Positions 10,719 to 49,286 of a stretch of DNA of 59,744 nucleotides are shown piece after piece. A program made the position numbers and the translations under genes. The stretch's first letter is position 1. The number at the start of each line of letters is the position of its first letter. The notes under the pieces were generated by a model that saw only the letters and a program-made list of their open reading frames with translations, ran no database searches and was not told the DNA's origin. The stretch is taken from the NCBI RefSeq assembly GCF_003334255.1, contig NZ_QOWU01000029.1; one strand, given 5' to 3'. Source of the DNA: Escherichia coli (GTDB taxonomy: Bacteria > Pseudomonadota > Gammaproteobacteria > Enterobacterales > Enterobacteriaceae).

Positions 10719-11492
10719 ATGAAACCTCGTCAGCGTCAGGCCGCCATTCTGGAGTATCTGCAAAAGCAGGGTAAATGCTCGGTTGAAGAATTGGCGCAAT
10801 ACTTTGACACCACAGGCACAACCATTCGCAAAGATCTGGTCATTCTGGAACATGCCGGAACCGTCATTCGTACTTATGGCGGAGTGGTGTTGAATAAAGA
10901 GGAATCCGATCCGCCTATCGATCATAAAACACTCATCAACACCCACAAGAAAGAGCTGATTGCAGAAGCTGCCGTTAGTTTTATCCATGATGGCGATTCG
11001 ATCATTCTTGATGCTGGCAGTACCGTTTTGCAGATGGTTCCCCTGCTCTCGCGCTTTAATAACATCACGGTGATGACCAACAGCCTGCATATCGTCAATG
11101 CGCTATCCGAACTGGATAACGAACAAACTATCCTGATGCCAGGCGGAACGTTTCGCAAAAAATCGGCCTCATTTCACGGGCAACTGGCAGAGAATGCCTT
11201 CGAGCATTTCACCTTCGATAAATTGTTTATGGGCACCGACGGCATCGATCTCAATGCGGGCGTAACCACCTTTAACGAGGTTTATACCGTCAGTAAGGCA
11301 ATGTGCAATGCCGCGCGCGAAGTGATTTTGATGGCGGACTCATCAAAGTTTGGCCGTAAAAGCCCCAACGTAGTTTGCAGTCTTGAAAGCGTCGATAAGC
11401 TGATTACCGACGCAGGTATCGATCCGGCGTTTCGTCAGGCGCTGGAAGAGAAAGGGATCGATGTGATCATAACCGGAGAGAGCAATGAGTGA
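10719..11492 (+). CDS. srlR: DeoR-family glucitol operon repressor, 257 aa
   Basis: ORF track; N-terminal helix-turn-helix and DeoR C-terminal sugar-binding domain. Confidence 0.93.
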
Positions 11493-12450
11493 AGCACTAC
11501 TGAACGCGGGACGTCAGACGTTAATGCTGGAGTTGCAGGAAGCAAGCCGTTTACCGGAACGTCTGGGCGATGATTTTGTTCGCGCCGCCAATATCATCCT
11601 GCACTGTGAAGGCAAAGTGGTGGTTTCGGGAATTGGCAAATCGGGCCACATTGGTAAGAAAATCGCCGCAACGCTTGCCAGTACCGGCACTCCGGCTTTT
11701 TTTGTCCATCCGGCAGAAGCGCTGCACGGCGATCTGGGGATGATCGAAAGCCGCGATGTGATGCTGTTTATCTCTTACTCCGGTGGCGCGAAGGAACTGG
11801 ATCTGATTATTCCGCGTCTGGAAGATAAATCTATCGCGCTGCTGGCGATGACCGGCAAACCGACGTCACCGCTGGGCCTGGCGGCAAAAGCGGTGCTGGA
11901 TATCTCCGTAGAACGCGAAGCCTGCCCGATGCACCTTGCGCCGACCTCCAGCACCGTCAATACCCTGATGATGGGTGACGCGCTGGCGATGGCGGTCATG
12001 CAGGCGCGCGGATTTAATGAAGAAGATTTTGCCCGCTCCCACCCAGCCGGGGCACTGGGCGCTCGCTTGCTGAATAAAGTGCATCATCTGATGCGCCGTG
12101 ACGATGCCATCCCACAGGTGGCGTTAACCGCCAGCGTGATGGATGCGATGCTGGAACTCAGCCGCACCGGTCTGGGGCTGGTGGCGGTATGTGACGCTCA
12201 ACAACAGGTACAAGGCGTCTTTACCGACGGCGATTTACGTCGCTGGCTGGTTGGCGGCGGCGCACTCACCACGCCAGTCAATGAAGCGATGACGGTCGGC
12301 GGCACCACGTTGCAATCGCAAAGTCGCGCCATCGACGCCAAAGAGATCCTGATGAAGCGCAAAATCACTGCCGCACCGGTGGTGGATGAAAACGGCAAAC
12401 TCACCGGCGCAATAAACCTGCAGGATTTCTATCAGGCCGGGATTATTTAA
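11485..12450 (+). CDS. gutQ: D-arabinose 5-phosphate isomerase GutQ (SIS and CBS domains), 321 aa
   Basis: ORF track; SIS-domain motif and tandem CBS domains; start overlaps the srlR stop. Confidence 0.93.
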
Positions 12451-13961
12451 TCCTTCAATCCCAGACGTTTCGCCAGCCGATGCAGGTTGGCGACGTCGGT
12501 TTCCAGCATCCGCGCGCAGGCAGCCCAGTTGTGATGATTTTGTGCCAGTGCCTGACGAATAGTTTCACGCTGGAACGCTTCTGTCGCTTCACGCAGGTTT
12601 TGCTTAACAACGGGCACCGCCGCCACTTCTGGCGTCGGCAACGTCACCTCAGGAAAAGCAAAATGTTGCGCCTCAAGAATCACTTCATCGCCGCTGCGGG
12701 TGGCTCTCGCCAGAACTACCGCCCGATGAATAGCATGTTCCAGTTCGCGCACGTTTCCCGGAAAACTGTAGTGTTGCAGTAAATTTCGCGCTCCGGCACT
12801 TAATACCACGCGGGAGAGCCCCTGCCGCAAACGACACTGCTCGCAGAAATACCCCGCCAGCAGAATGACATCATCGCCCCGCTCACGCAGCGGCGGCACC
12901 GAAAGTGGAAACACGCTCAGGCGATGAAACAAATCGGCGCGGAATCGCCCTGCCAGCACCTCTTCGCGTAAATCGCGGTTAGTCGCCGCCAGCACGCGCA
13001 CATCGACCCGCAAACAACGGTCATCGCCAACGCGCTGAATATCGCCATACTGCAACACCCTCAGCAGCTTGGCCTGCAATGCCAACGACAACTCGCCGAT
13101 CTCATCCAGAAACAGCGTGCCGTTATCCGCCATTTCAAACTTCCCGCTGCGATTACTGATAGCGCCAGTAAACGCTCCTTTCACATGCCCGAACAACTCA
13201 CTTTCCGCCACACTTTCCGGCAGTGCAGCACAGTTGAGATAGACCAGCGGATTCACCGCCCGTGGCGAGGCTTCATGAATCGCTTTCGCCACCAGCTCCT
13301 TACCGGTTCCAGTCTCACCGCTGATCAGGACGTTGAGATCGGACGCCGCCACAATCTCAATCTCTTTTTTCAGTTGCGTCATGCCAGGGGACAAGCCAAT
13401 CATCTGCGTCTGTTTCACCGCTTCAAACGGCGTGGCATCGCCTGGCAGCATATTCTGGCTTTCCAGTTGTTCAATCAGCAACGCATTGCTTAACGCTCCC
13501 GCCGCCAGCGCAGCAATCAGCCGTAGCTCTTCGTCGCTGAAAACATCGAACTGATCGGGCTGCATCCCGTCGAGCGTCAGTGCGCCGATCAGGTTTTGCC
13601 CGGCAAACAATGGCAGACCAACGCAGGCGTGAACCTTCAGACTCTCCTGCCCAGGAATCAAACCGTCATAGGGATCGGGCAATTCGCTGTCTGCGGGAAA
13701 GCGCACCACATCCCCGGCGCGGGCAATCGCTTCCAGCCGTGGATGCCCTTCCAGCGCAAAGCGTCTACCGAGTACATCCTTTGCCAGACCGTCGATGGCA
13801 AGCGGAATAAACTGCCGCGAATCGTAACGTAGCAACGCAGACGCATCGCACTCCAGCACCTGACGTAGCGTGGTGATCAGGCGCTGAAAACGATCCTGGT
13901 GACCAATCCCACGCTGCAATTCGATGGCGATATTCGCCAGCACATCAACGGAAAAACTCAT
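12447..13961 (-). CDS. norR: Sigma54-dependent NO-responsive regulator NorR, about 504 aa; the track ORF is extended to 14036
   Basis: ORF track; GAF domain, AAA+ sigma54-activator core ([14 protein letters not shown]) and C-terminal HTH. Confidence 0.95.
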
Positions 13962-13973
13962 CTTTGCCTCACT

Positions 13974-14029
13974 GTCAATTTGACTATAGATATTGTCATA
14001 TCGACCATTTGATTGATAGTCATTTTGAC
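13974..14029. promoter_or_regulatory. Three NorR enhancer sites (GT-N7-AC) in the norR-norV intergenic region
   Basis: gtcaatttgac (13974-13984), gtcatatcgac (13995-14005) and gtcattttgac (14019-14029) seen directly. Confidence 0.75.
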
Positions 14030-14084
14030 TACTCATTAATGGGCATAATTTTATTTATAGAGTAAAAACAATCAGATAAAAAAC

Positions 14085-46773: not shown

Positions 46774-48138
46774 ATGTCCACAATTACATTGTTATGCATT
46801 GCGTTAACTGGCGTAATCATGCTGTTGCTGCTGGTCATCAAGGCAAAGGTACAACCATTCGTTGCTCTGCTCCTCGTCAGCCTGTTAGTCGCACTTGCGG
46901 CGGGTATACCGGCGGGCGAAGTGGGTAAAGTGATGATCGCCGGGATGGGCGGTGTGCTTGGTTCCGTCACTATTATTATTGGTCTGGGCGCTATGCTGGG
47001 GCGTATGATCGAACACTCTGGTGGTGCAGAGTCACTGGCTAATTATTTCAGTCGCAAGTTAGGTGACAAACGAACTATCGCTGCGCTGACTCTGGCAGCG
47101 TTCTTCCTCGGTATTCCCGTCTTCTTTGATGTCGGCTTTATTATTCTTGCGCCAATCATTTACGGTTTTGCCAAGGTTGCCAAAATATCGCCACTCAAAT
47201 TTGGCCTGCCTGTCGCTGGGCTCATGCTCACTGTTCACGTGGCGGTACCGCCGCATCCAGGCCCTGTCGCCGCAGCGGGGTTACTCCACGCAGACATCGG
47301 CTGGCTAACCATCATCGGTATTGCGATTTCTATTCCCGTAGGGGTTGTTGGCTACTTTGCAGCGAAAATAATCAATAAGCGCCAATATGCGATGTCAGTA
47401 GAAGTACTGGAACAGATGCAACTGGCTCCGGCCAGTGAGGAAGGCGCGACAAAATTAAGCGATAAAATAAATCCACCGGGCGTCGCGCTGGTCACCTCGC
47501 TAATTGTTATTCCTATCGCGATTATCATGGCGGGTACGGTTTCCGCAACACTGATGCCGCCTTCGCATCCCCTGCTTGGTACGCTACAGCTGATCGGCTC
47601 ACCAATGGTAGCTCTAATGATTGCGCTGGTGCTGGCATTCTGGTTATTGGCTTTACGTCGCGGCTGGAGCTTACAACACACCAGCGACATTATGGGCTCA
47701 GCGCTTCCTACTGCGGCGGTAGTGATTTTGGTTACTGGTGCTGGAGGGGTATTTGGCAAAGTGCTGGTGGAATCGGGCGTCGGCAAAGCCCTTGCCAACA
47801 TGCTACAAATGATTGACCTGCCTCTGTTACCAGCCGCATTTATTATTTCACTGGCGCTGCGTGCATCGCAGGGGTCAGCAACCGTAGCAATACTGACAAC
47901 CGGCGGGTTACTCTCAGAAGCGGTGATGGGATTGAATCCGATTCAGTGCGTATTGGTGACGCTGGCAGCCTGCTTTGGTGGGCTTGGTGCGTCACATATT
48001 AATGACTCAGGGTTCTGGATTGTGACCAAATATCTGGGGTTATCGGTAGCAGACGGTCTGAAAACCTGGACAGTGTTAACGACCATTCTCGGTTTTACCG
48101 GATTCTTAATTACCTGGTGCGTATGGGCGGTAATTTGA
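46774..48138 (+). CDS. ygbN: GntP-family acid-sugar permease, 454 aa
   Basis: ORF track; polytopic GntP-type membrane protein. Confidence 0.9.
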   Translation: MSTITLLCIALTGVIMLLLLVIKAKVQPFVALLLVSLLVALAAGIPAGEVGKVMIAGMGGVLGSVTIIIGLGAMLGRMIEHSGGAESLANYFSRKLGDKRTIAALTLAAFFLGIPVFFDVGFIILAPIIYGFAKVAKISPLKFGLPVAGLMLTVHVAVPPHPGPVAAAGLLHADIGWLTIIGIAISIPVGVVGYFAAKIINKRQYAMSVEVLEQMQLAPASEEGATKLSDKINPPGVALVTSLIVIPIAIIMAGTVSATLMPPSHPLLGTLQLIGSPMVALMIALVLAFWLLALRRGWSLQHTSDIMGSALPTAAVVILVTGAGGVFGKVLVESGVGKALANMLQMIDLPLLPAAFIISLALRASQGSATVAILTTGGLLSEAVMGLNPIQCVLVTLAACFGGLGASHINDSGFWIVTKYLGLSVADGLKTWTVLTTILGFTGFLITWCVWAVI

Positions 48139-48150
48139 CCTTAATAAAAA

Positions 48151-48176
48151 GGTCCGATGGGCATCGGACCTTTTAT
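48151..48176 (+). terminator. Intrinsic terminator downstream of ygbN
   Basis: Hairpin ggtccgatgggcatcggacc followed by ttttatt. Confidence 0.75.
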
Positions 48177-48186
48177 TGTGCACAGA

Positions 48187-48218
48187 AAAGGCCAGCCTCG
48201 CTTGAGACTGGCCTTTCT
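48187..48218 (-). terminator. Intrinsic terminator downstream of rpoS
   Basis: Minus strand reads the hairpin ggccagtctcaagcgaggctggcc followed by ttttct. Confidence 0.75.
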
Positions 48219-48231
48219 GACAGATGCTTAC

Positions 48232-49224
48232 TTACTCGCGGAACAGCGCTTCGATATTCAGCCCCTGCGTTTGCAGGATTTCACGCAAACGGCGCAGGCC
48301 TTCAACCTGAATCTGGCGAACACGTTCACGGGTGAGGCCAATTTCACGACCTACATCTTCCAGTGTTGCCGCTTCGTACCCCAGCAAACCGAATCGACGT
48401 GCCAGCACTTCACGCTGTTTGGCGTTCAGCTCGAACAGCCATTTGACGATGCTCTGCTTCATATCGTCATCTTGCGTGGTATCTTCCGGACCGTTCTCTT
48501 TTTCATCGGCCAGGATGTCCAGCAACGCTTTTTCGGAATCACCACCCAGCGGGGTGTCTACCGAGGTAATGCGCTCGTTAAGACGAAGCATACGGCTGAC
48601 GTCATCAACTGGCTTATCCAGTTGCTCTGCGATCTCTTCCGCACTTGGTTCATGGTCCAGCTTATGGGACAACTCACGTGCGGTTCGCAGGTAAACGTTC
48701 AGCTCCTTTACGATGTGAATCGGCAAACGAATAGTACGGGTTTGGTTCATAATCGCCCGTTCAATCGTCTGGCGAATCCACCAGGTTGCGTATGTTGAGA
48801 AGCGGAAACCACGTTCCGGGTCAAACTTCTCTACCGCGCGGATCAGCCCCAGGTTGCCCTCTTCGATAAGGTCCAGCAACGCCAGACCACGATTGCCATA
48901 ACGGCGGGCAATTTTTACCACCAGACGCAAGTTACTCTCGATCATCCGGCGGCGAGAGGCGACATCTCCACGCAGTGCGCGACGCGCAAAATAAACTTCT
49001 TCTTCGGCCGTTAACAGTGGTGAATAACCAATCTCACCAAGGTAAAGCTGAGTCGCGTCCAACACACGCTGTGTGGCTCCCTGCGATAACAGTTCCTCTT
49101 CGGCCAAATCGTTATCACTGGGTTCCTCTTCTACTAAGGCCTTTTCGTCAAAAACCTCAACTCCGTTCTCATCAAATTCCGCATCTTCATTTAAATCATG
49201 AACTTTCAGCGTATTCTGACTCAT
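48232..49224 (-). CDS. rpoS: RNA polymerase sigma factor RpoS (sigma-38), about 330 aa; the track ORF is extended to 49260
   Basis: ORF track; sigma70-family regions 2-4; canonical start [21 protein letters not shown]. Confidence 0.97.
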
Positions 49225-49286
49225 AAGGTGGCTCCTACCCGTGATCCCTTGACGGAACATTCAAGCAAAAGCCTGGTTCCGCCGAT

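Follow-up and report, generated by a model that had tools for sequence, protein, structure and literature searches.

The 93-bp gap between the convergent genes ygbN and rpoS is best explained as two back-to-back Rho-independent terminators, and we hold this joint explanation with high confidence: a hairpin on the rpoS side (hp2) serves rpoS and a hairpin on the ygbN side (hp1) serves ygbN. The evidence comprises the two structures, the strand asymmetry of hp2, the position of the rpoS 3' end in vivo and conservation across strains and species. The window, meaning the whole stretch of DNA that was analyzed (59,744 nucleotides), is an Escherichia coli locus of the K-12 type, with 99.4–100% identity to E. 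coli chromosomes around the gap. Window coordinates equal MG1655 coordinates minus 2,818,327. On the MG1655 map, the last base of ygbN is 2866465 and rpoS spans 2866559–2867551. The features in and around the gap are as follows.

46774–48138, plus strand: ygbN coding sequence (GntP-family transporter), from the open reading frame list and the RefSeq annotation of identical or near-identical DNA.
48136–48138, plus strand: ygbN stop codon, TGA.
48143–48177, both strands: hp1, a palindromic hairpin, from folding, inverted repeats, terminator score and comparative position.
48177–48189, plus strand: spacer TGTGCACAGAAAA, an exact copy of IS200 nt 1–13, interpreted as an IS200 remnant.
48183, minus strand: primary rpoS mRNA 3' end, from Term-seq (PMC7815308), converted from MG1655 2866510.
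48183–48219, minus strand: hp2, the rpoS intrinsic terminator, with its core stem-loop at 48190–48213, from structure, score and Term-seq.
48232–48234, minus strand: rpoS stop codon, TAA.
48232–49224, minus strand: rpoS coding sequence, 330 codons as annotated, from the open reading frame list and RefSeq annotations.

The original prediction described a 93-bp gap at 48139–48231 between convergent genes, and both the open reading frames and the RefSeq annotation bear this out. Its hairpin coordinates, 48151–48176 and 48187–48218, are accurate when compared with the output of folding and of an inverted-repeat finder. It also contrasted this junction with that of gutQ and norR, where the convergent reading frames overlap by 4 bp, and the contrast holds. 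At that second junction, a gutQ-like reading frame (11485–12450, plus strand) and a norR-like reading frame (12447–14036, minus strand) share positions 12447–12450, which leaves no space for a terminator. The mechanically called rpoS reading frame (48232–49260) encodes 342 amino acids, extended by an in-frame upstream ATG, and the RefSeq product has 330 amino acids (993 nt).

Both strands of the 93-nt gap are strongly structured. The gap folds at -40.2 kcal/mol on the plus strand (z -6.4) and at -44.4 kcal/mol on the minus strand (z -8.1), and none of 200 dinucleotide shuffles matches the fold energy on either strand. When hp1 and hp2 are folded singly, z ranges from -5.1 to -6.5 relative to shuffles. 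A simple consensus terminator scan of the region returns 5 sites against 4.4 expected, and neither hp1 nor hp2 is listed. Presumably, both are missed because their stems reach into the A/T runs and consume the T-tract that the scan requires. The miss is a limitation of that scan and is not evidence against either hairpin. The terminator scores given below come from our own approximate re-implementation of a d'Aubenton-Carafa-type score with modern energy parameters, in which hairpin energy per nucleotide is combined with a weighted T-tract term.

The core of hp2 (48190–48213) reads GGCCAGCCTC-GCTT-GAGACTGGCC on the plus strand, with flanks AAAA and TTTCTG. Its inverted-repeat arms are 13 nt long and 92% complementary. 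On the minus strand, the hairpin is GGCCAGUCUC-AAGC-GAGGCUGGCC, a stem of 10 bp that includes one U-G wobble and is followed by UUUUCUG (48189–48183). It folds at -18.6 kcal/mol in this direction, with a z of -6.3 relative to shuffles. The terminator score is +24.2 on the minus strand, the direction of rpoS, and -8.3 on the plus strand, the direction of ygbN. This asymmetry arises because the U-G wobble of the minus strand becomes a C-A mismatch on the plus strand, where the tail is only UUUCUGAC. Therefore, hp2 is an rpoS-directed terminator.

The rpoS T-tract of the K-12 type is the weakest of those compared, and the terminator score is 24 versus 40–51 in the other E. coli patterns, Escherichia albertii and Salmonella. 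The U-rich tract directly 3' of its stem is UUUUCUGUG, which has a T-tract score of 3.65 versus 4.5–5.1 in relatives. At the same position (48183–48189 in the window), the other E. coli patterns, E. albertii and Salmonella have UUUUUUCUUUC or UUUUUCUUUU, and the version in patterns I and IV is UUUUUUCUUUC.

The published Term-seq map of MG1655 RNA 3' ends (Adams et al. 2021, eLife, PMC7815308) places the end of the rpoS mRNA at this hairpin. In the LB OD 2.0 sheet of its Supplementary file 1, the 'primary' 3' end of rpoS is MG1655 2866510 on the minus strand. The same entry is also labelled antisense to ygbN, and its printed context is ...GGCCAGTCTCAAGCGAGGCTGGCCTTTTCTG/TGCACAATAA (here and below, a slash marks an end or a junction). 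The table prints a sequence for each entry in which base 51 is the 3' end, as verified on sgrS. The end corresponds to window position 48183, the G of ...GGCCUUUUCUG, and is 7 nt beyond the stem of hp2. No other curated 3' end falls in the 2866xxx interval, on either strand or in any of the three conditions (PMC7815308). Choe et al. 2022 (PMC9023263) report strong termination strength for the RpoS terminator in their Term-seq analysis. The 3'-end mapping that had been proposed as a check is thus already available for rpoS in published Term-seq data, and its result agrees with the hairpin. We conclude that hp2 ends rpoS transcripts in vivo. Expression of rpoS is expected to be low at OD 0.5. 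This is the density of the experiment with and without bicyclomycin in which Rho-dependent regions were mapped, and the names rpoS and ygbN are absent from the resulting Rho-region file (PMC7815308).

The rpoS terminator is conserved well beyond E. coli. A degenerate pattern made from the last ten rpoS codons and the stop codon retrieves 120 loci, mainly from Enterobacterales, in species-representative genomes. An element consisting of an A-tract, a GC hairpin and a T-tract follows the rpoS stop codon in 116 of the 120 species loci, at a median distance of 20 nt and with a median energy of -14.8 kcal/mol. The stem sequence differs among genera. For example, it contains GGCCAG in Escherichia, Citrobacter and Salmonella, GGCCCG in Enterobacter, GGCTCAATC in Klebsiella, and GCGGTGG or GGTGAC in Pantoea and Erwinia. 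In a set of 35 distinct hairpins (8-bp stems, 4-nt loops), no stem position has fewer than two Watson-Crick pair types, and the number of pair types at each position ranges from 2 to 6. These 35 hairpins were picked by folding and are paired by construction, so that only the diversity of the pairs is informative. The loop also varies within E. coli, where one lineage has ATAA instead of GCTT and an unchanged hp2 stem. The element is kept in Enterobacterales, including genera with unrelated DNA downstream.

The second hairpin, hp1, is more symmetric. Its core stem pairs 48151–48158 with 48163–48170 (GGTCCGAT/ATCGGACC) around the loop GGGC, with AATAAAAA at 48143–48150 on one side and TTTTATT at 48171–48177 on the other. 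The complement of 48143–48150, TTTTTATT, is its T-tract on the minus strand. The inverted-repeat arms are 13 nt long and 100% complementary. The stem has a core of 8 bp (12–13 bp when A-U pairs are included) and folds at -11.8 kcal/mol. The z value is -5.1 on the plus strand and -6.5 on the minus strand, and the terminator scores are +11.7 and +18.7, respectively. The hairpin begins 12 nt past the ygbN stop codon and has the tail UUUUAUU on the plus strand, which gives the ygbN transcript strand a GC-rich stem-loop and a U-tract just past the stop. On these features, the assignment of hp1 as the putative ygbN terminator is well founded. The hairpin is symmetric and carries U-tracts on both strands, as is found in bidirectional terminators of convergent genes. 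As its stem is perfectly palindromic and each strand carries a T-tract, hp1 is predicted to act as a bidirectional terminator rather than as one for ygbN only. The original prediction had assigned one hairpin to each gene on opposite strands. This is correct for hp2 and rpoS, but the U-tract of hp1 is not confined to the ygbN strand.

From these features, the course of termination can be set out for each strand. On the minus strand, RNA polymerase leaving rpoS transcribes the 10-bp GC-rich hairpin of hp2 and then UUUUCUG, and releases the RNA 7 nt past the stem. The rpoS mRNA is left with a 3' UTR of 49 nt. Any read-through would meet hp1 24 nt beyond hp2, and hp1 may then serve as a second terminator in tandem. 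On the plus strand, transcripts of the ygb operon would end at the hp1 hairpin and UUUUAUU. For ygbN, there would be one good terminator (hp1) followed by a poor one (hp2, with its negative score on the plus strand). The net effect would be that neither transcript runs antisense into the other gene, and little antisense RNA is expected. Insulation of rpoS from the ygb operon, as the original prediction had it, is a reasonable functional reading of this arrangement.

Both hairpins resemble canonical E. coli intrinsic terminators, which have a GC-rich stem-loop, a U-tract after it and an A-tract before it, and lie just past the stop codon. The 3' end of rpoS in vivo, 7 nt past the stem, adds to this likeness for hp2. 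Nothing essential differs from canonical terminators; in the K-12 type, the U-tract of the rpoS terminator is broken early (UUUUCUGUG), versus UUUUUCUUUU in most relatives. A different known design is the single bidirectional terminator shared between convergent genes, which is reported to have been described by Ju et al. 2019. A possible example is hpt/can, with 3' ends at 142003 on the plus strand and 141973 on the minus strand around one hairpin (PMC7815308). In its palindromic sequence and its T-tracts on both strands, hp1 is like these shared terminators, and it is the sole element in the 38-bp gap of the pattern IV strain described below. The K-12-type window is unlike such pairs in that it has two hairpins, one per gene, and in that hp2 is strand-biased.

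The side-by-side position of hp1 and hp2 varies among strains. A 691-bp query across the gap was compared with 5,426 complete E. coli genomes. The rpoS side of the query is matched in 5,415 of these genomes, and it is joined to ygbN in 1,950, so that the K-12-type junction is present in about 36% of complete E. coli genomes. Where this junction is missing among the sampled genomes, the match starts at query position 347. This corresponds to window position 48186, in the spacer between hp1 and hp2. The sampled genomes without an adjacent ygbN retain hp2 together with rpoS. In some genomes rpoS itself is damaged: in the laboratory strain ET12567 it is annotated as a pseudogene with an internal stop codon, and another genome has a truncated rpoS adjoining mutS. 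Loss mutations in rpoS are frequent, and these damaged copies fit with this.

The homology break is the edge of the known polymorphic region between mutS and rpoS, and it falls between hp1 and hp2. In the passages of Ewers et al. 2014 (PMC4209514) that treat this region (mutS-rpoS, or o454-nlpD), E. coli is divided into patterns I–IV, of which pattern II is the K-12 type. The window, where ygbN/o454 adjoins rpoS, corresponds to pattern II. In the same passages, the other patterns carry decarboxylase and slyA-like genes or other open reading frames between o454 and rpoS, and one strain has an IS200 between o454 and rpoS. Our genome survey reproduces these arrangements. For example, rpoS of O157:H7 is preceded by pphB, a decarboxylase BCD cluster and a MarR/slyA-like gene, and ygbN is missing. 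In strain C3, which has pattern IV, the order is ygbN, decarboxylase cluster, MarR gene and rpoS. Here, hp1 is unchanged and occupies by itself the 38 bp that separate ygbN from the convergent gene for decarboxylase subunit D, and hp2 still adjoins rpoS, with other DNA before it. From these arrangements it follows that hp1 is part of the ygbN block and hp2 part of the rpoS block. The adjacency of the two is specific to the K-12-type arrangement. In pattern IV, two convergent genes have no candidate terminator other than hp1, and this fits its symmetric design. The passages of PMC4209514 give gene content and PCR sizes rather than junction sequence, and the word 'terminator' is absent from them. 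Beyond what they describe, the present comparison places the boundary at the end of the T-tract of the rpoS terminator and identifies the pattern II spacer with IS200 nt 1–13.

Two observations concern REP elements. Patterns with the MarR/slyA-like gene have a REP-like palindrome (gccggatgcgacgc...gcgtcttatcc) between this gene and the rpoS terminator, and it is not in the K-12-type window. A REP element in the window was considered and rejected on our own comparison with the REP consensus.

The spacer between the hairpins matches the left end of IS200. Positions 48177–48189, which include the A-run ahead of hp2, are identical at 13 of 13 nucleotides to IS200 nt 1–13 in the tnpA-sense orientation, and this is the only copy in the window. 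A 13-nt match to any part of IS200 occurs in 2 of 1,000 shuffled gaps when positions are unconstrained, and the argument for a remnant therefore rests on the start at nt 1 and on the canonical target. In junction comparisons, IS200 is 711 bp long and runs from TGTGCACAGAAAACCCCCAGC... to ...GGAGGATATTTAT. This numbering agrees with the published position of the bidirectional terminator hairpin that IS200 carries at its own left end, at nt 12–34 (Ellis et al. 2015, PMC4513863). The spacer is like an IS200 left end in its identical nt 1–13 and in the usual insertion point after a hairpin and TTTTAT. It is unlike one in that it stops after 13 nt; the hairpin of IS200, its tnpA and its right end are missing, and hp2 stands in the place of the hairpin.

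Intact IS200 copies show where the element inserts. In one E. coli lineage, IS200 lies between the MarR gene and hp2, and IS200 copies at unrelated loci match the sequence of that lineage up to ...GGGGGTTTTCTGTGCACAAAAA. With a chimeric query, IS200 is found between ygbN and hp1 in K-12-type strains and likewise in pattern IV strains; a third arrangement, in which it adjoins hp2, is found in other strains. In all 11 intact copies examined, from nine E. coli loci, nt 1 of IS200 abuts the T-run that follows a GC hairpin. These loci are downstream of yafE, malM, rnb and yiaA, within ypdA, and at hp1 and hp2, and most are at the 3' end of a gene in the same orientation (the first four named). The left flanks of the intact copies include cctttttat/, ccgtttat/, cctttat/ and cctttt/, and the right flank is TT or TA in 10 of the 11 copies and TC in the other. 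IS200 thus appears to insert into terminator T-tracts in E. coli. This target preference may be partly known already, given a 2026 preprint in which terminator-like sequences are enriched just upstream of IS200/IS605 elements. The K-12 sequence ggaccttttat/TGTGCACAG fits the same target rule, and the full K-12-type junction is ggaccttttat/TGTGCACAGAAAA/ggccag. The uninterrupted pattern IV sequence has ggaccttttat/ttaacgc at hp1 and ...ccgaaagaaaaaa/ggccag at hp2.

On this comparison, we lean slightly toward reading the K-12-type junction as a scar left by IS200 insertion and a later deletion rather than as an evolved double insulator. In this scheme, IS200 would have entered the T-tract of the ygbN terminator (ggaccttttat/tt) in an ancestor that still had the decarboxylase and slyA-like genes. 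A deletion of about 3.6 kb would then have occurred between GAAAA (IS200 nt 9–13) and the GAAAAAA that precedes the rpoS terminator. It would have removed the body of IS200 together with four genes (decarboxylase and MarR/slyA-like) and fused the two terminators. The same event would have replaced the distal part of the rpoS U-tract, and hence may account for the shorter K-12-type version (UUUUCUGUG). In the predicted intermediate, IS200 and the decarboxylase D gene would come after the junction ...GGACCTTTTAT/TGTGCACAGAAAACCCCCAGC.... When hp1, IS200 in the plus orientation and decarboxylase D are searched as one sequence, none of the 5,426 complete genomes covers at least 80% of it. A reverse-orientation IS200 adjoining hp2 was also considered and is less likely. 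It would leave only the palindromic 8-mer TGTGCACA, an 8-nt versus a 13-nt match, its flank ttttc/ is unlike those of intact copies, and the deletion would have ends without microhomology.

A related reading holds that the hairpins matter mainly as DNA: they would be hot spots of rearrangement and mark boundaries in the mutS-rpoS polymorphic region, with IS200 entering their T-tracts, and their side-by-side position in K-12 would be an accident of an IS200-associated deletion. We regard this as marginally more probable than its negation. The homology break at 48186, between hp1 and hp2, is consistent with it, as are the three or more arrangements in which IS200 adjoins one of the hairpins, the correspondence of 48177–48189 with IS200 nt 1–13, the hairpin T-tracts abutted by 11 of 11 IS200 copies and the restriction of the back-to-back arrangement to 1,950 of 5,426 genomes. 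However, this reading explains the origin of the arrangement and not the action of the hairpins, and it is not in conflict with terminator function. Moreover, hp2 demonstrably ends the rpoS RNA and is conserved across Enterobacterales.

The two remaining readings concern how the ygbN transcript ends and what the gap encodes. The absence of ygbN ends from the mapped 3' ends is presumably due to ygbN being unexpressed in the media used, LB or M63 glucose. In the curated Term-seq table of Adams et al. 2021, which covers three conditions, there is no 3' end at hp1 on either strand, and the TERMITe supplement has no match to ygbN, rpoS or the coordinates. The empty plus strand at hp1 would also be expected if Rho, or collision with polymerases coming from rpoS, were the main cause of ygbN termination, with hp1 incidental on that strand. 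Collision-driven termination between convergent E. coli genes has been proposed (bioRxiv 10.1101/2022.10.23.513370). Of the two stems, that of hp1 is the shorter (8 bp, -11.8 kcal/mol), and its plus-strand value of +11.7 is the lowest of the positive scores. We consider this reading unlikely. The missing end could equally mean a lack of ygbN expression in these media, and the Rho-dependent file of PMC7815308 has no region named for ygbN or rpoS. In addition, hp1 has every sequence feature of an intrinsic terminator 12 nt past the stop codon, and it is intact beside ygbN in strains where the neighboring gene is different. The strong structure of both strands would likewise suit a small RNA or another structured regulatory RNA encoded in the gap, and this is very improbable. 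A permissive Rfam search gives three sub-threshold matches to unrelated families (E 0.23–0.98), well under their gathering scores. A consensus scan finds no promoter-like site in the gap, and no RNA end other than that of the rpoS mRNA is mapped there. The reading as two terminators, hp2 for rpoS and hp1 for ygbN, is retained.

The pair of hairpins is a known and ordinary feature, in which the rpoS terminator has already been mapped and the polymorphism of the region is well described. It adds little, as Term-seq had placed the rpoS terminator and convergent genes that end in terminator hairpins are textbook material. Its value is that of a clean positive control, where a prediction from sequence is right and the existing 3'-end data agree. 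The IS200 remnant is a modest and plausible addition, which offers a possible origin, at the nucleotide level, for one of the four classic variants of the region. The IS200 copies compared here show a consistent preference for terminator T-tracts. If IS200 favors such tracts, terminators would be preferred breakpoints in the mutS-rpoS polymorphic region. The trimmed U-tract of the K-12 type could slightly change the formation of the rpoS 3' end relative to other E. coli lineages.
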